From NCBI GenBank assembly GCA_934444645.1, contig CAKSCV010000007.1, positions 1,447 to 65,446 on the forward strand: DNA of 64,000 bases, read 5' to 3'. The DNA is from an uncultured Eubacteriales bacterium. GTDB lineage: Bacteria; Bacillota; Clostridia; Oscillospirales; CAG-382. Shown in pieces: positions 16,451 through 51,505 of the stretch; within the stretch, counting starts at the first letter, position 1; each line of letters starts with the position of its first letter. Made by a program: the position numbers and the translations under genes. A model generated the notes under the pieces. It was given only the letters and a program-made list of their open reading frames with translations. It searched no databases and had not been told where the DNA came from.

Positions 16451-17842
16451 CTATTTTCCCACGCAGAAATGCGAAAATATGGTGCTTACCACCTGCTCGG
16501 ACACCTGTCGGCCGTCAGCTTCGTTCAATGCACCGAGTGCTTCTTCCAGGTCAAGACCTGCCATGTCGCGCGTCAGTGCCCACAGGGCGTTCTTGGCGTT
16601 TTCCAGGCACGAGACCGCTTTTTGCACGGCGGCATACTGGCGGGCGTTGGTCAAAACCAAGCCGTGCTCCAACGCGTCGCTTGCGAGAGGGAACAGCGTA
16701 TGCAGGTGATTTTCCAATTCGTTTAAGCCGCCGTTTTGGGCGGAAATGGGCAGAATATGTGTAATCCCGGCGTCCTTTAAGGCGGTTTCCCACCGGTTTA
16801 TCTGTTCGCCCGAGGCGATATCGGTTTTGTTGATCAGGGCGATAACCGTCTTTTTTTCGGCCAACGCCGCAATCTGCGCGATAAAGGCGTTTTCTTCGGC
16901 GGTGATATCATCGCGTGAGCCGTCAAACACGGCAAAAATAAGCTCGCCTTCTTCGAGAGCTTGCTCCGACCGCTCCACGCCGATTTTTTCGACGGTGTCG
17001 GCGGTTTCGCGAATGCCTGCCGTGTCGGCAAGCCTTAGCTTGATGCCGGCGCATACGACATTTTCGGTGATGACATCGCGCGTGGTTCCGGCAATGTCGG
17101 TCACGATGGCGCGGTCATTTCCGGCAAGCAGATTGAAAAACGTGGATTTTCCGGTGTTGGGCGCACCGGTGATGACGGTATAAATGCCCTGCGTGACCGC
17201 GCGTCCGGCAGCATATGTGGCACAGAGCGCACGCAGTTCTTCCGAAAGCTGTTCGATCTGCTCTGCCATTTCGTCGTCTGTCACATCGCTCATGTCCTCG
17301 TCGGGATAGTCGATAAAGGCATAGACTGCGGCAAGAAGAGCGGTGATCTTATCCGCGGCAGCGCGGATCTTTTTTCCGAGTCCGCCTTCAAGCTGGGCGG
17401 AAAACAAGCGTAATTCATCAGCACTTTCAGCGTCGAGCAGATCACCGACCGCCTCGGCTTGGGTGAGGTCAAGCTTTCCGTTTATAAAGGCGCGCTTGGT
17501 AAATTCGCCGGGAAGTGCAGGCTTAGCGCCGGCGGCAAACAGTGCACCGAGAATGAGACTTGTGCCGACCGGACTGCCGTGACAGCTGATCTCGACGGTG
17601 TTTTCGCCGGTATAGGAATGCGGCGCACGGAACACGGTGGCAAGACCGGTGTCGATTTTCCTGCCGTCGGCGGCAAAGGCCGTGCCGAATACGGCAGATC
17701 GCGCCGGACAGTCTTGAAGTGCTTTGCCGTTTTTCGGACGAAAGACGGCGGAAGCGATTGTTACGGCATCATCGCCGGAAAGGCGGATAACGGCGACGCC
17801 GGCTTTGCCGGCACCGCTGGAAAGAGCCGCACAGGTGTGCAT
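16451..17842 (-). CDS. mnmE: tRNA uridine-5-carboxymethylaminomethyl modification GTPase MnmE
   Basis: G domain GAPNTGKSTFFN, DTAGIR, NKTD; C-terminal FCVGK. Start trimmed to MHTCAALSSG with a GAGGTAA RBS. The longer ORF-track N-terminus reads into the repeat element. Confidence 0.9.
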   Translation of the reverse strand: MHTCAALSSGAGKAGVAVIRLSGDDAVTIASAVFRPKNGKALQDCPARSAVFGTAFAADGRKIDTGLATVFRAPHSYTGENTVEISCHGSPVGTSLILGALFAAGAKPALPGEFTKRAFINGKLDLTQAEAVGDLLDAESADELRLFSAQLEGGLGKKIRAAADKITALLAAVYAFIDYPDEDMSDVTDDEMAEQIEQLSEELRALCATYAAGRAVTQGIYTVITGAPNTGKSTFFNLLAGNDRAIVTDIAGTTRDVITENVVCAGIKLRLADTAGIRETADTVEKIGVERSEQALEEGELIFAVFDGSRDDITAEENAFIAQIAALAEKKTVIALINKTDIASGEQINRWETALKDAGITHILPISAQNGGLNELENHLHTLFPLASDALEHGLVLTNARQYAAVQKAVSCLENAKNALWALTRDMAGLDLEEALGALNEADGRQVSEQVVSTIFSHFCVGK

Positions 17843-18098
17843 AACGGTTACCTCGTGAGATATTTTTGATAGGGTGCTTTTCGGTTTGCGAAAAGCACCG
17901 AAAGGCGGCGAAAAAGCACACGGAGTGTGCCGTCCCGGCAGGGACAAACTTTCCGAAAGGAAAGTTTCAAAGGCGGCATGGCCGCCGGAAGATGGCGCGA
18001 AGCGCAAAGATTTGTTGCGATAGCAACAAGGGATATGCCGTCTGCGGCGGCGAAAGGATTCAATTGGATTGCATGAGTTTGTTGTCTGTGTGTGCTGT

Positions 18099-18200
18099 TT
18101 CGAGGTTTGCAGAACCTCGAAGCTTTCTTAAAAAGGTTTTAATTGTTGCGGTGCGAAGCTGCAGCTGCGGTGGGCTGATTCGAGGTTTGCAGAACCTCGG
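18099..18200. repeat. Copy A left-arm hairpin units (two hairpins, 80-bp spacing)
   Basis: TTCGAGGTT-TGCAG-AACCTCGAA at 18099-18121, and again starting at 18179. Confidence 0.8.
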
Positions 18201-18294
18201 AGCTTCCCGGAAAGGGAACGGGTTTATTCTTTTCGCGTGTACGAAAAGAACCAAAAGTACACCAGAGGTTTGCGAACCTCTGGACTCCGGGGAC

Positions 18295-18408
18295 GATTCA
18301 AATCGCCGGTCGATACGTAATTTCCGCTAAAATAACCAGCCATCATCAGGTAACCGGTTTTGCGAAAAGCTGCAACTTCGCCGGGTATCGCCGGCAATGA
18401 TTTGAATC
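18295..18408. repeat. Long hairpin module H (copy A, left arm)
   Basis: GATTCAAATCGCCGGTCGATAC (18295-18316) pairs with GTATCGCCGGCAATGATTTGAATC (18385-18408). The stem is about 21 bp with small bulges and the loop about 68 nt. Confidence 0.75.
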
Positions 18409-18473
18409 GGTGCGACGTTCCGGCTTTACAGCACAAAATTAGAGCGAACAGCAAAAGAACAGCTGTATTCTTT

Positions 18474-18723
18474 GCAAACAGTAGGTTAAGGGTGGTGCGA
18501 ATGGGAGATGGAGGGTGGAAAAGAGTTGCTTTGGGTGGCAATTAAGGAAAGGTTTGTGCAAAAGAAAAGCTTTTGGTTTGTGAAAATGGGAATTTTTTGC
18601 AGACAGTAGGTTAAGGGTGGTTGGAATGGGCAGCGGAGGGTGGAAAAGGGGTGTTTTGGATGGTAATAAAGAAAAGTTTGTGCGAATAAACGGCTTTTTG
18701 TACGTGAAAAAGGCGGCTTTTGA
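18474..18723. repeat. Tandem duplication of about 125 bp inside the centre of copy A
   Basis: CAGTAGGTTAAGGGTGG...GGAGGGTGGAAAAG occurs at 18479 and again at 18604. Copy B has a single copy, at 24377. Confidence 0.7.
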
Positions 18724-19038
18724 GGACAGTAAAAAGTTGTTCGAATGAGCGGTGTTTTGGTTGCGAAAAAGAGCGGCTTTTGAGAGCAAAGCGTAAAGCT
18801 TTCTGTAAATGGAAACCTTTTGTTTTGCGGAAAAGGGCTGTTTTTTTCAGCTCATACAAAGCTACCCGATAAAGAAAAAACTCATTTTAGCACTGCAAAA
18901 TTCCAACTTCCCACCGCACCAAAGCTAACGAGCAGTCACAAATTTTATCCGCGACAGCCTACTATGAGCTTGCAGTACACCATCTCTTTTTCGAAAAATA
19001 ACGGTCTTGCGTTTGCACTACGGTAACCCTTTCGCACC

Positions 19039-19151
19039 GATTCAAATCATTGCCGGCGATACCCGGAAAACTTACGGTTTTCGCAAAACCGGTTACCTGA
19101 TGAATGCCGGTCACTTTAACTACAATCATGTATCGACCGGCGATTTGAATC
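19039..19151. repeat. Long hairpin module H (copy A, right arm, inverted)
   Basis: GATTCAAATCATTGCCGGCGATAC (19039-19062) pairs with GTATCGACCGGCGATTTGAATC (19130-19151). Reverse complement of the left-arm H. Confidence 0.75.
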
Positions 19152-19235
19152 GAGGTCGCAGGACGGAGTCCCGCGTGCTTTTTGGTTACTTTTTGCACGA
19201 TGCAAAAAGTGACAACTCGTATTTTCTCGCAGGAA

Positions 19236-19463
19236 GCTTCGAGGTTCTGCAAACCTCGATTCAGCTCACCGCAATGGCAGCTTCGCACCGCAACAATTAA
19301 AACCTTTTTAAGGGAGCTCCGAGGTTTTGTAAACCTCAAATCAGCCCACCGCAGTGATATCTTCGCACCACAACAATTAAAAACTTTGTAAGAGAGCTTC
19401 GAGGTTCTGCAAACCTCGAATCAGCACACCGCAGCCGCAGCTTCGTACAAACCAATTAAAACC
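19236..19463. repeat. Three tandem 80-bp hairpin units (copy A right arm)
   Basis: Units start at 19236, 19316 and 19396. Each begins GCTYCGAGGTTYTGYAAACCTCRA and ends CAACAATTAAAACC. Confidence 0.85.
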
Positions 19464-19510
19464 TCTCCGGAACTTTTCCATCCTTATTTGTAAGGCACAA
19501 AAAGCAGGAC

Positions 19511-19533
19511 AAAAAAGCCCTCCCTGCCGGGAG
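19511..19533 (-). terminator. Possible intrinsic terminator after the ParE-like gene
   Basis: On the minus strand: CTCCC-GGCA-GGGAG followed by GGCTTTTTT. The stem is short and is nested in a larger GCAGGAC/GTCCTGC pairing. Confidence 0.4.
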
Positions 19534-19556: not shown

Positions 19557-21692
19557 TCAGACATCGGCAAGATCAATATATTCCGCACCGTGCGCCGCAA
19601 TGTAAGCTTTTCGGGCAATAATGTCGTCGCCAAGCAGCGTGTTGAACATGATATACGTTGCCTTTTCGTCCTCCGGCCCGATGCGGATCAAACGGCGCGA
19701 AGCCGGATTCATGGTCGTTTGGTTCATCATGTCCGGTTCGTTTTCACCAAGACCCTTGGAACGCATGATCTTGTACGGCGCGTCGCCAAGCTTTTTTAAG
19801 ATGTCGAGTTTTTCTTTTTCGTTGTAGGCAAACTGCGTGCCGAGCTTTTTCGATTCGATTTCATATAACGGCGATTCCGCTATATACACGCGTCCCTCGC
19901 GGATAAGCGTCGGCAGCAGCCGGTAAAACATGGTCAAAATCAGCGTGCGGATCTGATAGCCGTCCTCGTCGGCATCGGTACAGATGATGATCTTGCTCCA
20001 TTTGAGCGAACCGATGTCAAACTGCGACAGATTCTTGTCCTTGCCTTTCGAGGTGCCAAGCTCCACGCCGCAGCCGATGACCTTCAGAAGATCCACAATG
20101 ATATCGCTCTTGAAAATTTTGTCATAGCTGCTCTTTAGGCAGTTGAGCGTCTTGCCGCGCACCGGCATGACCGCCTGATAATCCGGATTGCGCGCAAGCT
20201 TGACTGAACCGAGTGCGCTGTCGCCCTCCACAATGTACAATTCGCGTTTGGCGGCATCCTTTGAGCGGCAGTTCACGAATTTTTCCACACGGTTGGCAAT
20301 ATCAATGTTCTTTTCGAGCTTCTTTTTGATGTTGACACGGGCGCTTTCGGCGTTTTCGCGGCTTCGCTTGTTGATAAGCACCTGGGCGGCGGCTTTTTCG
20401 GCTTGCTTGGGATTTTCTGCGAAGAAAACCTCAAGCGAGTGTAAGAAAAAGTCGGTCATAGCCTCCGCGATAAACGTGTTGGTGATAGCTTTTTTGGTCT
20501 GATTTTCGTAGCTGGTGCGCGTGGAGTGGGAATTGACGATGAAAACAAGGCAGTCCTCGATATCGCCATAGGTGACCTTACTCTCGTTTTTGGCATATTT
20601 GTTGTTGTTTCGCAAATAGATATCAAACGCCTTGACAAAGGCCGAACGTGTCGCTTTATCCGGTGAGCCGCCATGCTCAAGAAAGCTGGAATTGTGGTAA
20701 TATTCCACACGGCTTAGTATGTTGGAAAAACAGAAAACCATTTCGATTTTCAACTTATATTCGTTCATGTCTCCGCGGTCTTTGCCGCGGCATTCGGTCT
20801 TGAAATAGGCCGGAACGGTGAGTGCATACGTGCGTGCGGCGTTTTCCTCGGCTTGGTCGTCGGTCGAAGCTTCGTCGGCTTCATCCGCTTCGTCGGCTTC
20901 GTCGTTTTCGTCGGTTTCTGCCGCTTGTTCCTCTGCTTCTTCGGCTTCTTCGGACGGATTATAGCCGCCGTCGGCACTGATGATCTCATTCATGTAATCG
21001 ACGATGCCGCGTTTGTATAAATATTCGCGCTTTTCGTGTGTGCCGTCCTCGTTTTCGAAATCCAGCGTGATGGTCACGCCTTCATTGACCACCGCCTGCT
21101 TTTTGACGGTTTCATCAAAAAAGACAAACGGGACGTTGATATCGGTAAAGACCGCAAGATCCGGCTTCCATTCGACCACTGTGCCCGTGCGGCGGCGTAC
21201 CGGCTCTTCGACAATGAGGTCGGTGGCCGGATAACCCTTTTCAAAACGGATGGAGGACTTGTTTTCCTTTGTATAGCTGGTGACCGTCATGTATTCCGAA
21301 GCAAACTGTGTGGCGCACGCACCAAGCCCGTTCGTGCCGAGGGAATATTCGTAGGCTTCGCCGTCGTCGTTGTCGTATTTGCCGCCGGCATATAATTCAC
21401 AGTATACCAAATCCCAGTTGTATCGTCCCTCGCGCTCATTCCAGCCGAGCGGAACGCCGCGTCCGAAGTCCTCGACCTTGATCGAATGATCCTTGCGGAC
21501 CTCGACATTGATGCGGCTGCCGTAGCCTTCGCGCGCTTCGTCGAGGGCGTTGGCGAGAATTTCGAGAAACGTGTGGCCGCAGCCGTCAAGACCGTCCGAA
21601 CCGAAAATAACGGCCGGACGCAGACGAACCCTGTCTGGGCCTTTTAGGGAGGTAATGCTGTCATTTCCGTAATTTTTTTGTTCTTTTGCCAT
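19557..21692 (-). CDS. Type IIA DNA topoisomerase subunit B (ParE/GyrB-like) with an acidic low-complexity insert
   Basis: GHKL ATPase N-terminus (FLEILANALDEAREGYG, EDFGRGVP, GTNGLGA). Toprim ELYIVEGDSALGS and TDADEDGYQIRTL. Acidic stretch EEAEEAEEQAAETDENDEADEADEADEASTDDQAEE at about aa 247-285. Confidence 0.8.
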   Translation of the reverse strand: MAKEQKNYGNDSITSLKGPDRVRLRPAVIFGSDGLDGCGHTFLEILANALDEAREGYGSRINVEVRKDHSIKVEDFGRGVPLGWNEREGRYNWDLVYCELYAGGKYDNDDGEAYEYSLGTNGLGACATQFASEYMTVTSYTKENKSSIRFEKGYPATDLIVEEPVRRRTGTVVEWKPDLAVFTDINVPFVFFDETVKKQAVVNEGVTITLDFENEDGTHEKREYLYKRGIVDYMNEIISADGGYNPSEEAEEAEEQAAETDENDEADEADEADEASTDDQAEENAARTYALTVPAYFKTECRGKDRGDMNEYKLKIEMVFCFSNILSRVEYYHNSSFLEHGGSPDKATRSAFVKAFDIYLRNNNKYAKNESKVTYGDIEDCLVFIVNSHSTRTSYENQTKKAITNTFIAEAMTDFFLHSLEVFFAENPKQAEKAAAQVLINKRSRENAESARVNIKKKLEKNIDIANRVEKFVNCRSKDAAKRELYIVEGDSALGSVKLARNPDYQAVMPVRGKTLNCLKSSYDKIFKSDIIVDLLKVIGCGVELGTSKGKDKNLSQFDIGSLKWSKIIICTDADEDGYQIRTLILTMFYRLLPTLIREGRVYIAESPLYEIESKKLGTQFAYNEKEKLDILKKLGDAPYKIMRSKGLGENEPDMMNQTTMNPASRRLIRIGPEDEKATYIMFNTLLGDDIIARKAYIAAHGAEYIDLADV

Positions 21693-22342: not shown

Positions 22343-23722
22343 TTGACACAACCGAGAACCGAAAACAAAATGGGCGTTATGCCCGTTAACCGCCTGCTTG
22401 TTTCCATGGCAGCACCGATGATGATTTCCATGCTTGTACAGGCTTTATACAACGTAGTGGACACCATGTTCGTGTCCCGGCTCGGCAAAGATGCGCTCAC
22501 CGCTTTGTCGCTTGCTTTTTCGGTACAGAACCTCATGATTGCCGTCGCCGTCGGTACGGGCGTCGGTATTAACGCACTGCTTTCGCGCAGCCTTGGCGAA
22601 AAAGAATTTGAAAGAGCCGGAAAAACGGCTGAAAACGGCCTGTTTTTGGCAGGTATCAACTATATACTGTTTCTCATAGTCGGCATTTTCTTCTCCCGCT
22701 CGTATTTTTCGTTGTTCGGCGCGTCGGAGACGGTGACGGAATATGGCGCACAGTATCTTTCGATTTGCTGCATTTTGTCGTTCGGCGTGTTCGGTCAGAT
22801 TACATTTGAACGGATTTTGCAGTCGGTCGGCAAGACCATGTTAACCATGGTCACGCAGCTAATCGGTGCGGTCCTCAATATCATTCTCGACCCGATCATG
22901 ATTTACGGCTTACTTGGTTTTCCGAAAATGGGCGTTGCCGGTGCGGCACTTGCAACGGTCATCGGTCAGATCATCGCGTTTATCGCCGGAATTATCCTCA
23001 ATCACAAGTTCAACCACGAGGTGCGCTTAAATATGCGTTCGTTCCGCCCGGATGGCGCGATCATCAAAAACATTTATGCAGTCGGCATTCCGTCGATCAT
23101 CATGGGCTCGATCGGTTCGGTCATGACGGTGGGCATCAATCAGATCGTGCGTCTTTGCGGCGCGGTGGCAGATACGGCACAGGCAGTGTTCGGCGTGTAT
23201 TTCAAGCTGCAGAGCTTTGTGTTCATGCCGGTATTTGGACTAAATAACGGCATGGTACCGATTATTGCCTATAATTTCGGCGCAAAAAAGCGTGACCGGC
23301 TGACCAAAACCATCCAGCTCAGCGTTGTGTATGCCTGTATTTTGATGTTTATCGGCTTTTTGCTGTTCCAATTTATGCCGGAAACGCTGTTACGTATTTT
23401 CGATACCGGAAACGATGATATGGTCGGCATTATCGAGGTCGGTGTGCCGGCGCTGCGCCGCATCAGCTACAGCTTTGTGCTTGCCGGGTTCTGTATTGTG
23501 ATTTTATCGGTCTTCCAGGCACTCGGACACGGGTTTCTCAGTCTTGGCGTTTCGGCCATGCGTCAGCTTGGCGTTCTGCTGCCGGTCGCATTTATTCTTG
23601 CGGCTACGACGCATTCGGTGGAAACGGTGTGGCTTGCGTTCCCGATTGCGGAAATTGCGTCGGTGACGCTGTCGGCGTTATGTCTTGTGCATGTATACAA
23701 AAAAGATATCAGGAATTTGTGA
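22343..23722 (+). CDS. MATE family efflux transporter
   Basis: 12-TM protein with N-terminal PVNRLLVSMAAPMMISMLVQALYNVVDTMFV. The ORF-track start is TTG; an alternative ATG lies at 22370. Confidence 0.85.
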   Translation: MTQPRTENKMGVMPVNRLLVSMAAPMMISMLVQALYNVVDTMFVSRLGKDALTALSLAFSVQNLMIAVAVGTGVGINALLSRSLGEKEFERAGKTAENGLFLAGINYILFLIVGIFFSRSYFSLFGASETVTEYGAQYLSICCILSFGVFGQITFERILQSVGKTMLTMVTQLIGAVLNIILDPIMIYGLLGFPKMGVAGAALATVIGQIIAFIAGIILNHKFNHEVRLNMRSFRPDGAIIKNIYAVGIPSIIMGSIGSVMTVGINQIVRLCGAVADTAQAVFGVYFKLQSFVFMPVFGLNNGMVPIIAYNFGAKKRDRLTKTIQLSVVYACILMFIGFLLFQFMPETLLRIFDTGNDDMVGIIEVGVPALRRISYSFVLAGFCIVILSVFQALGHGFLSLGVSAMRQLGVLLPVAFILAATTHSVETVWLAFPIAEIASVTLSALCLVHVYKKDIRNL

Positions 23723-24192
23723 GAAATGCCGGCAAAAGCTTTGCTTTTGCCGGCATTTCTGCTTGCGGAGCAAGCATATTCACGCGAAGCGTGTTATATG
23801 CCCCGGCAGGGGCAAGACTTCCCGTGCAAACGGGAAGTTCCGGAGGCGGCTTTGCCGCCGGAAGAAGCCGCGAAGCGGCAACAGAAAAATGCCGCCGAAA
23901 GGCGGCGAAGAAGCACACGGAGTGTGCCGCCCCGGCAGGGACTCTGCCGTAAGGGGGCAAAAGGATTTAATTGGGTTAGTGCGAATTTGTTGTCTGTGTG
24001 CGCTGATTCAAGGTTTGCGTAACCTCGAGGCTTTCGAAAGGTTTTAATTGTTGCGGTGCAAAGCTGCGGCTGCGGCGCGCTGATTCGAGGTTTGCAGAAC
24101 CTCGGAGCTCCTTGCAAAGGGATACGGGTTGTTACTTTTTGCATCGTGCAAAAAGTAACCAAAAAGCACGCGGGACTCCGTCCTGCGACCTC

Positions 24193-24306
24193 GATTCAAA
24201 TCGCCGGTCGATACGTGATTGCTGCGAAAATGATCGGCGTTCATCAGGTAACCGGTTTTGCGAAAAGCTGCAACTTTGCCGGGTATCGCCGGCAATGATT
24301 TGAATC
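24193..24306. repeat. Long hairpin module H (copy B, left arm)
   Basis: GATTCAAATCGCCGGTCGATAC (24193-24214) pairs with GTATCGCCGGCAATGATTTGAATC (24283-24306). Confidence 0.75.
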
Positions 24307-25000
24307 GGTGCGACGCTCCGGCTTTACAGCACAAAATTAGAGCGGAGATCAAAAGAATAGCTGTATTCTTTGCAGACAGTAGGTTAAGGGTGGTTGGAAT
24401 GGGAAGCGGAGGGTGGAAAAGGGGTGTTTTGGATAGAAACATGGAAAGGTTTGTGCGAATAAAAGGCTTTTTGCACGTAAAAAGGCGGCTTTTGAGAACA
24501 GTAAAAAGTCGTTCGAACGAGCGGTGTTTTGGTTGCGAAAACGAGAGGTTTTTGAGGGCGGTTTGTAAGCTTTCTGTAAATGGAAAGATTTTGGTATGCG
24601 AAAAAGGCAGATTTTCAGCTCATGCAAAGCAACCCGATAAAGAAAAAACTTTTTTTCAGCGCACAACGACACCAATTTCCCACTGCAACAAAACTAACGT
24701 GCAACTGCAAATTTCATCCGCGACAACCTACTGTGAGCTTGCAGTACACCTTTTCTTTTTCGGAAAACAACGGTCTTGCGTCTGCACTACGGTAACCCTT
24801 TCGCACCGATTCAAAGCCTTTTCGCTGCCGTTTTGCAGACAAAACCGGTTTCGGCACGAGCCGTCGGGAATTTTTGCAAAATCACTTCCGGCAGAGCTTT
24901 GAATCGTCCCCGGAGTCCAGAGGTTCGCAAACCTCTGGCGTGCTTTTTGATTCTTTTTGCACGACGCAAAAAGAATGTAAAAACGTCCCCTTTGCAGGGA

Positions 25001-25226
25001 GCATCGAGGTTTTCCAAACCTCGAATCAGCACACCGCAGTGACATCTTCGCACCGCAACAATTAAAACCTTTCAAGGAAGCTCCGAGGTTCGCAAACCTC
25101 GAATCAGCACACCGTAGCCGCAGCTTCGCACCGCAACAATTAAAACCTTTTTAAGGAAGCTTCGAGGTTCTGCAAACCTCGAATCAGCGCACAAAGATAA
25201 CAACCTCGCGCAATCCAATTAAATCC
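25001..25226. repeat. Three tandem 79-bp hairpin units (copy B right arm); the last is the terminal variant
   Basis: Units start at 25001, 25080 and 25159. The terminal unit ends GCGCAATCCAATTAAATCC. Confidence 0.85.
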
Positions 25227-25442
25227 TTTCGCCGCCCTTGGCGGCTTTTCTTTCCGACTTGCGGCGGTGTCCCTGCAGGGACGGCACACCCCGTGTGCAT
25301 TTCGCCGCTCCCAGCGGCAGTTTCCGGCATTTCCGGCCGGAAACTTTTTTCTGCTTTTTGATGACCCAAAAAGCAGCTTGCGCCGACAAAAAAGAAACGG
25401 CTTTTTTGTCGGCTTATTTTTGTGCAATTTACAAATAAACTC

Positions 25443-25555: not shown

Positions 25556-26260
25556 ATGCCTAAATACAAACGCGTCTTATTAAAATTGTCGGGCGAAGCA
25601 CTTAAAAATGCCTCCGACAAGGGAATCATCGATTTTGACTTTACCGCTAAGGTCGCCGAACAAATCAAACGCTGCACCGATGAGGGCGTTTCGTTCGGAC
25701 TTGTCATCGGCGGCGGCAACATCTGGCGCGGCGCCGGAAAAATGATCGACCGCACGCGTGCCGACCATATGGGAATGCTCGCTACCGTCATCAATTCGCT
25801 TGCCGTGCAGACGGTGCTTGAAGAACACGGTGTTCCGACGCGTGTCATGACGGCACTGCAAATGAATCAGATCGCCGAACCTTATATCCGCAACCGCGCC
25901 GTCTCCCATCTTGAAAAGGGCAGAGCCGTTATCATCGGCTGTGGCACGGGCAACCCCTATTTTTCCACCGACACGGCAGCGGTTTTAAGAGCGGCTGAAA
26001 TCGGCGCGGATGTTGTGCTGTTTGCCAAGAATATTGACGGTGTCTACACGGCAGACCCCAAAAAAGACCCGAATGCCAAGAAAATCGATGAAATGACGTA
26101 TGATGATATCATCCACCATGACCTCGGCGTTATCGACAGCACCGCGTCTTCGTTCGGCCGCGACAACAAGCTTCCCATCATCATCTTCGGTCTGAACGAC
26201 CCGGAAAACATTTATAAAGCCGTCTGTGGCGAAAAAATCGGTACGATCGTCCGCAACTGA
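25556..26260 (+). CDS. pyrH: UMP kinase
   Basis: [16 protein letters not shown]..., [21 protein letters not shown]. Confidence 0.95.
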
Positions 26261-36579: not shown

Positions 36580-36655
36580 AGGGGAATAGCTCAGCTGGTA
36601 GAGCAGCGGTCTCCAAAACCGCGTGCCGAGGGTTCGAATCCTTCTTCCCCTGCCA
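36580..36655 (+). tRNA. tRNA-Trp (anticodon CCA)
   Basis: Acceptor AGGGGAA/TTCCCCT, anticodon loop CTCCAAA, T arm GGTTCGAATCC, encoded CCA. Confidence 0.9.
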
Positions 36656-36693
36656 GTTTTCCGGAAATGCTCGGAAAGCTTATCAAATCATCC

Positions 36694-36769
36694 GCGGATT
36701 TAGCTCATTTGGTAGAGCGCGACCTTGCCAAGGTCGAGGTGGCGGGTTCGAGCCCCGTAATCCGCTCCA
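36694..36769 (+). tRNA. tRNA-Gly (anticodon GCC)
   Basis: Cloverleaf folded by hand. Anticodon loop TTGCCAA, T arm GGTTCGAGCCC, encoded CCA. Confidence 0.9.
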
Positions 36770-36867
36770 GCGGCAATGTGCCGCAGCAAAACACAAAAAT
36801 GTGTGCGTGAAAAATTCACGGTGCGCAAACAGATTTGACCGTATTGTCCCAAGCGCGTTTTATTCCC

Positions 36868-36943
36868 GGAGGGTTAGCTCAGCTGGGAGAGCATCTGCCT
36901 TACAAGCAGAGGGTCACAGGTTCGAGCCCTGTACCCTCCACCA
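36868..36943 (+). tRNA. tRNA-Val (anticodon TAC)
   Basis: Acceptor GGAGGGT/ACCCTCC, anticodon loop CTTACAA, encoded CCA. Confidence 0.9.
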
Positions 36944-36947
36944 TTAC

Positions 36948-37024
36948 GGTCCGGTAGTTCAGTTGGTTAGAACGCCAGCCTGTCACGCTGGAGGTCGTGG
37001 GTTCGAGCCCCATCCGGATCGCCA
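36948..37024 (+). tRNA. tRNA-Asp (anticodon GTC)
   Basis: GGTCCGGTAGTTCAGTTGGTTAGAAC..., anticodon loop CTGTCAC, encoded CCA. Lies 4 nt after tRNA-Val. Confidence 0.9.
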
Positions 37025-37058
37025 CTTTATTTGAACAGCGGCATGTGTTTCTGTTTAC

Positions 37059-37134
37059 GCCTCTGTAGCTCAGTTGGTAGAGCAGGGGACTGAAAATCCC
37101 CGTGTCGTTGGTTCAATTCCGACCGGAGGCACCA
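37059..37134 (+). tRNA. tRNA-Phe (anticodon GAA)
   Basis: Anticodon loop CTGAAAA, T arm GGTTCAATTCC, encoded CCA. Confidence 0.9.
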
Positions 37135-37163
37135 GCCGGTATCGAAATAAGGTGCGGCTACCT

Positions 37164-37239
37164 GCGGATTTAGCTCATTTGGTAGAGCGCGACCTTGCCA
37201 AGGTCGAGGTGGCGGGTTCGAGCCCCGTAATCCGCTCCA
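37164..37239 (+). tRNA. tRNA-Gly (anticodon GCC), second identical copy
   Basis: Identical to 36694-36769. Confidence 0.9.
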
Positions 37240-37321
37240 ATGGCGAAAGCCATAGCAATACGTGCTGCATACCGAGCAGCAAACAAAAAGAACAGCGTTT
37301 CCCGAGACGCAGACGTGAGAT

Positions 37322-37396
<75 letters not shown>

Positions 37397-37411
37397 TTCT
37401 TTTTTATGTAT

Positions 37412-37487
37412 GCCTCTGTAGCTCAGTTGGTAGAGCAGGGGACTGAAAATCCCCGTGTCGTTGGTTCAATTCCGACCGGAGGCACCA
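37412..37487 (+). tRNA. tRNA-Phe (anticodon GAA), second identical copy
   Basis: Identical to 37059-37134. Confidence 0.9.
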
Positions 37488-37530
37488 CCCGTTTGGGTTG
37501 TGTTATCATGCATCCGAAACGGACAAGTAC

Positions 37531-37607
37531 GGTCCGGTAGTTCAGTTGGTTAGAACGCCAGCCTGTCACGCTGGAGGTCGTGGGTTCGAGCCCCATCCGG
37601 ATCGCCA
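37531..37607 (+). tRNA. tRNA-Asp (anticodon GTC), second identical copy
   Basis: Identical to 36948-37024. Confidence 0.9.
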
Positions 37608-37638
37608 GCCTTCGGGCAAAACAAAATATTCTGCCTAT

Positions 37639-37714
<76 letters not shown>

Positions 37715-51034: not shown

Positions 51035-51505
51035 GCTTGATGTGCGATGAAACGGGAGGTTGCGGTGTTTACACCGGGAATTTCCGTGGAGTATGTCCGA
51101 TAAACGGGCGACAGCGAATACTGAACCGAAGCGCATGGTTGCGATCTCAGGGCGTTCCTTCAAGCAGGTGCGTTTCTGCTATCGCCGTGGCAAGAGAAAT
51201 TTTGCCGAAAGCAGTGCCGGCGCTAAGGCGTATCTTTCTTAAAACATCGGTCGCGGAACCGTCGGTGAATTTCACCGAAAGGCCGTGCAATATGTGCCGT
51301 GTGGCTCTTTATGGGCTTGCGGCGTAAGAATGGTAAGCTGCCCGAATTCCCCTCGGTTTGAGGTCGAATCGGGTTTTTCATTCGGGAAGCATTAGAAACA
51401 CCCGGACGCGTGTTCGTATTTCACTGTGCCGCATTTAAAACGGTTCCTGCGTTAAATCAAGCGTAAACGTGCGCAGGACGAAAAATTTTAAAGGAGGCAG
51501 AAAAA
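51035..51505 (+). promoter_or_regulatory. Long structured 5' leader, or an independent ncRNA, upstream of rpsJ, with a terminator/attenuator-like hairpin at 51341-51379
   Basis: No credible ORF or RBS. Many local hairpins. CCCGAATT...GAATCGGG plus T5 at 51341-51379, with an alternative perfect pairing of CCCGAAT (51341-47) to ATTCGGG (51380-86). Confidence 0.4.

Follow-up and report, generated by a model that had tools for sequence, protein, structure and literature searches.

Contig CAKSCV010000007.1 of an uncultured Eubacteriales bacterium (GenBank assembly GCA_934444645.1) contains, within the 64,000-nucleotide (nt) stretch analysed here and called the window, two non-coding repeat blocks of ~1.6 kb flanked by housekeeping genes. 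In each block two inverted arms enclose an asymmetric core, and the arms carry a module, X or Y, next to a hairpin domain, H1 or H2. Mapping of the modules by blastn confirms that the first block, copy A, reads X-H1-core-H1'-Y', while the second, copy B, reads Y-H1-core-H2-X', at the coordinates given by an earlier reading of the sequence (hereafter the original prediction). X and Y thus change sides between two copies whose cores point the same way. Is the core an invertible segment, as the original prediction proposed, or does the swap have another origin? We consider it probable that the region is copy A of a lineage-specific, many-copy family of nested-palindrome mosaic repeats, and that the X/Y swap reflects the free combination of modules and not a centre that inverts at present.

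The distribution of the modules among other copies bears on this question. Tabulating X/Y placement against core direction, a step suggested by the original prediction, revealed no single fixed arrangement: with the core normalised to the plus direction, all four states occur among 22 distinct complete copies (XX in 4, XY in 3, YX in 12 and YY in 3). Left arms are X-H1 in 9 cases, Y-H1 in 9, X-H2 in 2 and Y-H2 in 13, and right arms are H1-X in 20, H1-Y in 10, H2-X in 8 and H2-Y in 2. X/Y and H1/H2 take either arm largely independently, with A (XY) and B (YX) being two of the four states. No inversion can yield XX or YY, so modules must in any case have been exchanged, whether from arm to arm or from copy to copy.

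Module anatomy of copies A and B

From the outside inwards, an arm comprises a few private small hairpins, one to three tandem 80-nt U units, X or Y, and an H1 or H2 domain of 98-114 nt. All modules are self-folding hairpins or sets of hairpins, and the core enclosed by the arms is asymmetric and 500-630 nt long. The U unit contains a 9-bp GAGGTT hairpin (its 23-mer has 8 matches vs 0 expected by chance), and GAGGTT-loop-AACCTC hairpins number 5-7 per element. Of the three hairpins in X, the third (CCAGAGGTT-TGCG-AACCTCTGG) is a version of the one in U. Y has the first two in common with X and just the right half of the third (TGCGACCTC), adjoining a GCGGGAC-TCC-GTCCTGC hairpin of its own; the left half of the GAGGTT hairpin of X is missing from it. 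X and Y, each found in either arm and sharing two hairpins, are alternative versions of one arm module, in agreement with the original prediction. H1 (114 nt) and H2 (98 nt) are distinct domains, both closed by an unvarying stem GATTCAAA(T/G)C ... G(A/C)TTTGAATC, and this stem places an 8-10 nt motif at every module border, four per element and in alternating orientation. The core, with edges GGTGCGA / TCGCACC, is a decayed palindrome (CAGTAGG ... CCTACT).

Copy A has an inner element of 1408 nt (18056-19463), and its layout against 12 reference modules (blastn) is outer hairpins, U U, X, H1, C1 C2 C2 C3 C4, H1', Y', U' U' U', outer hairpins. Its parts are:

17937-19524, no strand: composite (block) A as a whole, the stretch missing from the scar alleles of L019 and L027; its neighbours are a ParE/GyrB-like gene (19557-21692, minus), which adjoins it with its 3' end, and mnmE (16451-17842, minus), which adjoins it with its start
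17937-18055, plus: outer-left tract of small GC hairpins with loops of 3-4 nt
18056-18207, plus: left terminal repeat, with terminus GGATTCAATTGG at 18056-18067 and two tandem 80-nt U units
18208-18294, plus: module X of the left arm, with hairpins a, b and c, then ACTCCGGGGAC
18295-18408, plus: left H1 alpha domain, a self-folding 114-nt hairpin (-40 kcal/mol, z -4.35)
18409-19038, plus: core, asymmetric and non-coding, with edges GGTGCGA / TCGCACC
19039-19151, minus: second H1 domain, alpha subtype, inverted; its closest relative is the left H1 of L066 (92%)
19152-19235, minus: module Y of the right arm, inverted; blastn match 19152-19222, 97% to the Y of B
19232-19463, minus: right terminal repeat, three inverted U units with terminus CCAATTAAAACC at 19452-19463
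19464-19524, no strand: outer-right tract of small hairpins and T-runs, which likely includes the terminator of the upstream minus-strand topoisomerase gene

The outer-left tract holds the hairpins CTTTCC-GAAA-GGAAAG, GGCGGC-ATG-GCCGCC, GCGC-GAAG-CGC and TTGTTGC-GATA-GCAACAA. The U hairpins of the left arm (TTCGAGGTT-TGCAG-AACCTCGAA) lie at 18099-18121 and 18179-18201, and those of the right arm are exact or near-exact at 19238-19260 and 19398-19420 and diverged near 19318. In the X of copy A, hairpin a is CCCGGAAAGGG, hairpin b TTCTTTTCG..CGAAAAGAA and hairpin c the U-like one; in its Y, hairpin b' (ACTTTTTGCA..TGCAAAAAGT) is accompanied by the GCGGGAC-TCC-GTCCTGC hairpin and then GACCTC. The closing stem of H1 reads GATTCAAATC-GCCGG-T-CGATAC / GTATCG-CCGGC-AAT-GATTTGAATC and is unvarying in 26 copies. 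The core is made up of C1 (18409-18478), a 125-nt unit present twice (18479-18603 and 18604-18713), C3 (18727-18960) and C4 (18961-19038).

Copy B has a shorter inner element of 1264 nt (23963-25226) with the layout outer hairpins, U U, Y, H1, C1 C2 C3 C4, H2, X', U' U' U', outer hairpins (blastn). A third copy is cut by the start of the window, so that three family copies are present in the 64 kb:

~23816-25229: block B, neighbouring a MATE transporter gene (22343-23722) and pyrH (25556-26260)
23816-23962, plus: outer-left tract of small hairpins, holding an inverted 30-nt edge motif
23963-24112, plus: left terminal repeat, with terminus GGATTTAATTGG at 23963-23974 and two U units
24113-24192, plus: module Y of the left arm (blastn mapping)
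24193-24306, plus: H1 alpha domain (blastn mapping)
24307-24807, plus: core with a single 125-nt unit, in the same direction as the core of A
24808-24905, plus: H2 domain, a self-folding hairpin (-33.5 kcal/mol, z -3.3)
24906-25000, minus: module X of the right arm, b2 subtype with a Y-like hairpin b; blastn 24906-24993, 85% to the X of A
25000-25226, minus: right terminal repeat, three inverted U units with terminus CCAATTAAATCC at 25215-25226
1-128, minus: right end of the third copy, with U units, a hairpin at 63-85 and terminus CCAATTAAATCC at 117-128, directly downstream of a solute-binding-protein gene (309-1778, minus)

The H2 closing stem is GATTCAAAGC / GCTTTGAATC, and the domain has an unvarying AAAACCGGTTTCG. 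The termini form inverted repeats GGATTTAATTGG...CCAATTAAATCC (23963-23974 / 25215-25226 in B, 18056-18067 / 19452-19463 in A, and 117-128 in the third copy), and the terminal arms remain inverted-repeat over some 150-230 nt. Outside them, a 30-nt double-hairpin motif, GCACACGGAGTGTGCCG(Y)CCCGGCAGGGAC, is found at the left edge of A (17916-17945), inverted at 23913-23942 in B, and in the right flank of B (25269-25298). It is retained in empty alleles too, and may be either a separate small repeat resembling repetitive extragenic palindromic (REP) sequences or the outermost layer of the element.

The comparison of A with B upholds much of what had been read from the sequence. The motifs taken to characterise X (CCAGAGGTTTGCGAACCTCTGG and ACTCCGGGGACGATTCAAA, 18262-18302) and Y (GCGGGACTCCGTCCTGCGACCTCGATTCAAATCG, 24170-24203) are present, and the centres run in the same direction, with 18592-19046 of A matching 24365-24815 of B on the plus strand at 86%; likewise, CAGTAGGTTAAGGGTGG occurs on the plus strand only (18479, 18604 and 24377). 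The swap extends beyond X and Y and spans the entire outer arms: the left arm of A (18046-18215) matches the right arm of B (25236-25068) at 91%, and the right arm of A (19032-19349) matches the left arm of B (24313-23998) at 87%, in both cases on the minus strand. Nevertheless, B is not the reverse complement of A with a flipped centre, as had been proposed. Its right inner arm is H2 and not H1, the 125-nt core unit occurs twice in A and once in B, and the two copies are just 82-91% identical. Some other copies of the family read H2'-core-H1' rather than H1-core-H2.

Inner polarity and the question of present-day inversion

The inner block displays a strict polarity. At 83 distinct H-core junctions the 3' end of H1 and the 5' end of H2 always point toward the core, with 0 exceptions, and lone flips of an H domain are seen at 0/83 junctions, though each H lies between two opposed GATTCAAA sites. 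The H1 subtypes are also sided: with few exceptions, alpha is left and beta is right. Copy A departs from this pattern with H1 alpha on both sides, and its right arm (Y-H1alpha) looks like a left-type arm in inverted orientation.

We used exact-protein look-ups to retrieve independent assemblies of the window's lineage, which yielded nine informative metagenome samples. Each contig reaching A or B keeps the arrangement of the window, with X-H1-C1 toward mnmE, Y'-H1'-C4 toward parE and Y-H1-C1 toward matE. The sole difference among these own-lineage assemblies is the loss of one 80-nt U unit in three of them: L115, L013 and L118 have exactly one unit fewer in the left arm of A (18075-18207) and are otherwise identical. 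This is either genuine slippage in unit number or the short-read collapse of a tandem repeat.

Comparisons among 62 element regions agree with this stability. Mixed orientation was found in 0/69 pairs sharing at least 80 nt at ≥96% identity, pairs at least 93% identical over at least 400 nt all have the same flanks, and between different loci tracts of at least 110 nt at ≥95% are almost absent. Recent inversion or gene conversion between copies was rejected on the grounds that no pair was mixed and that long high-identity tracts between loci are nearly lacking; there is thus no sign of recent transposition or of recent long-tract conversion. As for the machinery, no recombinase or transposase domain appears in the Pfam tables of the syntenic contigs (~window 9-36 kb) or in 20 further open reading frames (ORFs) scanned, a few small ORFs being left out, and the nearby invertase gene that the original prediction suggested seeking is absent among the scanned or tabulated ORFs of the window. 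The Y1/HUH transposase domain was found in none of the ORFs scanned in the window and in loci of 8-20 kb, where no search directed at RAYT was made.

Nor does the core look like a coding or regulatory switch. It holds no conserved ORF, and H-core-H varies from 533 to 861 nt across copies. The possibility that the centre is a gene was rejected, given that open frames are inconsistent between copies in strand, frame and length. A scan covering promoters of the sigma-70 type only found none in the cores.

These data bear directly on the view that, in living populations, the core or the H-core-H block is flipped through site-specific or RecA-dependent inversion at the H arms or the GATTCAAA sites, in the manner of an inverton or shufflon. 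The uniformity of nine same-lineage samples, the zero counts among the 69 pairs and the 83 H domains, the XX and YY copies and the absence of a recombinase gene in the window scans all speak against it, as do a core without a sigma-70-like promoter or ORF and the occurrence of elements in either orientation relative to neighbouring genes. The features that would serve such a mechanism are the four GATTCAAA(T/G)C sites, in alternating orientation exactly on module borders, and, in copy A, exact inverted repeats of 35 nt around the core (18381-18415 / 19032-19066) and of 23 nt around the H-core-H block (18294-18316 / 19130-19152); the core of B has a mere 15-nt inverted repeat around it. In addition, a mirror-image element at locus B of L022 and the H2'-core-H1' copies indicate that flips happened at some time. 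On balance we judge inversion in present-day populations to be very unlikely. The data give no support for a working switch, and most likely the mosaic is old and the swap is a fossil of former recombination between arms or copies. Of the original prediction, then, the idea that nested segments have changed orientation holds over evolutionary time, whereas flipping today, and with it the invertible centre, finds no backing. Its alternative, exchange or gene conversion between arms, fits the data better than an invertible centre.

Alleles at loci A and B and the origin of the mosaic

PyrH look-ups led to syntenic contigs from the same species (six; 98-99% identity, four genes) and from a sister species (four; 90-96%). 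Within the species, three very different full alleles are found at locus A: X/Y in the window, Y/X with H2 in L022, and Y/Y with H2 in L024. A simple in-situ inversion leading from the A of the window to that of L022 was considered and rejected, for X and Y are swapped but the direction of the core is kept, identity is 78-85%, and the right H domain differs. Other alleles are much reduced. L026 has the outer hairpins, with the outer-left tract, alongside one U; this tract is missing in L019, L021 and L027. In L021 (5330-5380) a 36-nt insertion completes a 48-nt palindrome, CCGGCAGGGACAAACTTTCC-GAAA-GGAAAGTTTGTCCCTGCCGG, imperfect by one base; the right half of this palindrome stands alone in the scar alleles, and in full alleles 1.6 kb occupies this position. 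In L019 and L027 a single 12-nt hairpin, TCCC-TGCC-GGGA, remains as a scar, with the junction ..GCCGTCCC/TGCCGGGAG.. in place of the 1588 nt of the window and an intergenic gap of 127 nt vs 1714 nt. Both full and scar alleles have a 4-nt TCCC at both junctions (17933-17936 and 19521-19524 at the edges of composite A); the flanks continue the palindrome, and the pattern is equally expected from stem deletion.

Locus B is full in some conspecific strains and empty in four, and in L022 it holds the exact mirror image of the window's inner element between the same flanks. The sister species has a single arrangement at locus A, Y-H1beta-core-H1beta'-X', in five strains; pairwise among four of them, the element gap differs by 0.5-1.1%, mnmE by 0.4-1.8% and parE by 1.7-2.9%. 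UMGS882, an uncultured Clostridiales known from a human-gut metagenome-assembled genome (MAG), shares synteny with the window at locus A (92.6% nucleotide identity), and its locus A is occupied as well. Given that occupancy in both the sister species and UMGS882, the empty alleles are most simply explained as losses.

Rearrangements on a smaller scale were also observed. A hairpin by locus B (25230-25244) has its loop inverted, being GCCGCC-CTTG-GCGGC in the window and GCCGCC-AAGG-GCGGC in element-free strains (L019, 9648-9662 region). At 7580-7830 of L109 there is a mini-element consisting of U, hairpin b and U'. L029 (1380-1793, identical to L136) has the left arm U-X-H1 of one element against the truncated core of another; this arrangement is nested or broken, and it could record the insertion of an element into an element. 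At locus B of the sister species (L028, 9300-9700), ~740 nt of other small hairpins, without U, X, Y or H, include an inverted pair CCTACTTTTTGT..ACAAAAAGTAGG, and from this locus the genomes seem to hold further palindromic repeat families.

How such a mosaic might arise can be envisaged from the hairpins themselves. Recombination or replication template switching would have built it over evolutionary time. Two inverted copies of a hairpin would act as inverted repeats when taken as wholes and as direct repeats in their stems. Exchange between arms could flip the intervening segment, exchange or slippage between stems could delete the interior and leave one hairpin with its loop in either orientation, and exchange between copies could swap modules at conserved junctions. 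The stem-exchange step matches the solo U, the L109 mini-element, the scar at A and the loop-inverted hairpin by B. When the template is switched between imperfect inverted repeats, it is known that arms are homogenised and made complementary, the spacer is inverted, and hairpins are created or extended (PMC8604942, PMC8794818, PMC5453318), and long palindromes are deletion hot spots, being lost between short direct repeats (PMC7999016). These processes match the loop inversions, the scars and the nested series of alleles. However, the events described are mostly of tens of bases, and a 1.3-kb unit at dozens of loci is left unexplained by them.

An alternative scenario is suggested by the reduced forms. 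The H-core-H block could be mobile in its own right, a non-autonomous unit bounded by 10-bp terminal inverted repeats (GATTCAAATC...GATTTGAATC) that inserted in either direction into the tip of a palindrome made of U and X/Y. If so, the relation of X/Y to the core would have been set at insertion, not by later flipping. The outer-only forms are in keeping with this scenario, namely the U-hairpin b-U' of L109 and the solo U of L026 with the same GGATTTAATTGG...AAATCC termini, and so are the single 8-10 nt motif at every module border, the constant polarity of the inner block beside freely varying X/Y, and the left arm abutting a truncated core in L029/L136. Yet H-core-H without X/Y arms was seen in 0 of ~60 element regions, the borders show no target-site duplication, the flanks being palindromic instead, and near-identical copies at different loci are absent, so that there is no sign of recent movement. 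Moreover, each arm has a complete tip hairpin, which is simpler to obtain by deletion, and H1 and H2 themselves assort between sides. We regard nested insertion as unlikely.

Free combination of modules in an old mosaic is thus the reading that we prefer, but several points weigh against it. The copy counts refer to distinct sequences, some of which are orthologous, that is, one locus in different strains or samples. The evidence for stability comes from assemblies, which give the majority form only, and the exact 35-nt and 23-nt inverted repeats of A are adequate substrates for inversion. Within the species, the centres of the full locus A alleles are 15-22% different from one another, vs 1-2% for the flanking genes; these alleles are thus not simple descendants of each other, and we infer that alleles may have been replaced by recombination at this locus. 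As to spread to new loci, neither an autonomous partner nor a clear target duplication was found, no two loci proved to have near-identical copies, and in 36 UMGS882 loci no U+...U- pair encloses genes. Finally, some blocks are strictly unvarying within copies that are 10-25% diverged (a 33-nt X core, the GATTCAAA stems, GGGTATCGCCGG and AAAACCGGTTTCG), a pattern that hints at a sequence-specific function or partner outside the foldback account.

Distribution, relatives and possible role

To outline the range of the family, we searched genome collections with the 21-mer of the U hairpin, a scan that was clean where 17-mer scans had drowned in chance matches. The exact 21-mer is found in just 2 of 185,579 species-representative genomes, in 26 stretches of UMGS882 and at one contig end of a 'Catabacter sp.' MAG. 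All scans combined, family modules are present on at least 35 contigs of UMGS882, mostly within ~150 nt of contig ends, as is usual when short-read assemblies are interrupted by a dispersed repeat. A more distant related species, L164 (ParE protein 93% identical), has family modules too, and a scan of public metagenomes added ~25 contigs, every one from human gut. Searches with four further proteins of the window returned the own lineage only, or nothing useful, and the element has zero matches in PLSDB plasmids, INPHARED phages and IMG/VR. The family is a lineage-restricted, many-copy set of long non-coding nested-palindrome ("foldback") repeats of 1.26-1.6 kb, found in an uncultured lineage of gut Clostridia. 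If the density of the window (3 copies/64 kb) holds genome-wide, it would make up several percent of the genome.

Among described repeats, the closest bacterial analogues are mosaics of REP sequences and bacterial interspersed mosaic elements (BIMEs), together with MITEs (miniature inverted-repeat transposable elements) that have alternative ends; the closest architecture is that of eukaryotic foldback (FB) elements. No named family seems to fit, and the repeats may be likened to a bacterial counterpart of foldbacks or to a giant BIME. As in REP/BIME/REPIN systems (PMC2817692, PMC3116915, PMC3733652), the elements are intergenic, non-coding and many-copy, with small palindromes in alternation and a limited set of linkers combined as a mosaic; unit number varies, and copies often lie beside gene 3' ends. 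Alternating hairpin modules, mosaic combinations and high copy number are present, but REP sequences measure 20-40 nt and BIMEs usually tens to a few hundred nt, whereas the units and the composite here are far larger (1.26-1.6 kb), with a long unique asymmetric core of 500-630 nt and hairpin domains of 100 nt. Furthermore, REP/BIME are known from enterobacteria and pseudomonads, in contrast to the Gram-positive gut anaerobe studied here, and there is no sequence similarity.

FB elements of Drosophila and other eukaryotes rely on a transposase encoded by rare full-length copies. Their arms, like those described here, are long inverted repeats of tandem short sub-repeats that vary in number, the centre is heterogeneous, most copies are non-coding and the whole folds back. 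The differences are the eukaryotic host, the mobilisation by a transposase, none being seen here, the lack of homology, and the interruption of the bacterial arms by self-contained hairpin modules. Correia elements of Neisseria are about 100-160 bp long and have a TA target duplication. With these and other MITEs our elements share terminal inverted repeats, two variants per end that combine freely, presence or absence between strains and, possibly, terminator-like hairpins; they are ten times longer than Correia elements, a clear target duplication was not found, and near-identical copies are not shared between loci. Foldback elements are mentioned in PMC3169594, and MITEs have been reviewed in general (PMC2229807). 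Of the MITE features, terminal inverted repeats and polymorphism among conspecifics at 98-99% gene identity (locus A full, partial or scar; locus B full or empty) are present, and a size under ~600 bp, near-identical copies at different loci and, in the loci scanned, an autonomous partner are missing.

The R64 shufflon is a multi-site inversion cluster, and it resembles the present elements in having several repeats in alternating orientation on module borders. Invertons (10.1101/2023.03.11.532203) likewise have inverted repeats around a segment, and relative orientations differ between copies and strains here as well. Both differ from the elements of the window, in which no recombinase was found nearby, sigma-70-like promoter or coding content is lacking, nine assemblies are uniform and XX and YY states are unreachable, and whose repeats far exceed typical invertase sites in length and divergence. 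Three further candidates, a CRISPR array, an integron attC array and an iteron replication origin, were rejected, as the U hairpins are separated by conserved 'spacers' and an associated gene is missing. Rfam gave no hit at gathering score, and matches at E<=10 were noise only, far under family thresholds; a group II intron, considered because the core starts with GGTGCGA, was discarded since no Rfam intron matched.

Whether the elements act as structured nucleic acid is also a pertinent question. The 1408-nt inner element of A folds, as a single strand, into one long stem with side hairpins, its arms pairing over hundreds of bases, and the modules also fold individually, well beyond shuffled controls. 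One could envisage a non-coding RNA of very large size, or a dedicated protein that binds the DNA as hairpins or cruciforms, with the variants tolerated under selection, an account compatible with free module combination. The unvarying blocks and stems in copies 10-25% diverged would fit it, and the element of the sister species evolves no faster than its flanking genes. Covariation is less telling. Hairpin b has compensatory variants (CTTTTCG/CGAAAAG vs CTTTTTGC/GCAAAAAG), but of 24 consensus pairs in an alignment of 26 H1 copies nearly all are invariant and 1/24 has changed on both sides (G-U to U-G, pair 11-105); template switching, moreover, makes compensatory changes without selection (PMC8794818). 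The symmetry of the arms means that both strands fold alike, and modules lie on both strands, so that no single transcript has all of them in sense. The two arms of an element often differ in subtype, which implies that long-range pairing is not maintained. We also rejected concerted evolution of the two arms of one element, the arms being no more alike than those of different copies. With, in addition, no promoter-like site in the core, no Rfam relative and strains without the element at either locus, a selected structured nucleic acid seems quite improbable.

The most economical guess for a role is that the elements insulate or terminate transcription. Where a T-run follows, U hairpins point inward and X/Y hairpins outward, which makes a two-way transcription barrier plausible. 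The topoisomerase gene and mnmE, downstream of it, are 127 nt apart in the scar alleles, and the interval from the element to the mnmE start (17843-17936) showed no promoter-like site; with a 1.6-kb hairpin-rich insert between the two genes, mnmE expression may be affected. A bolder proposal is that the repeats form an undescribed giant class of non-coding foldbacks, in dozens of intergenic sites, that is maintained by or serves a dedicated partner recognising the GAGGTT hairpin and the GATTCAAA/TTTGAATC stems. We hold this to be doubtful. If true, candidates for the partner would be an unlinked recombinase or HUH-type enzyme able to move, flip and reshuffle modules, as in a non-coding shufflon, or a structural protein to which the elements serve as landmarks on the chromosome.

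In bacteria, long palindromes are as a rule unstable. That this lineage keeps dozens of foldbacks of 1.3-1.6 kb among its housekeeping genes raises the questions of how they are tolerated and propagated and whether they serve as insulators, terminators or protein platforms. The elements break short-read assemblies and make strains differ by more than 1 kb in the spacing of essential genes, and repeat-based scans can mistake them for invertible switches. Locus A offers, in its allele series (full, solo unit, small palindrome, scar), a clean case from nature of how a nested inverted repeat decays, and a useful test bed for models of template switching and palindrome deletion.

Other features of the window include an array of ten tRNA genes at 36580-37711, with partly duplicated blocks, and an S10 ribosomal-protein leader at 51038-51111 that precedes a ribosomal protein operon. 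The ParE/GyrB-like ORF next to copy A (19557-21692, minus) has an acidic low-complexity insert, EEAEEAEEQAAETDENDEADEADEADEA..., at 20837-20952, encoded by short DNA repeats with a 9-nt period.

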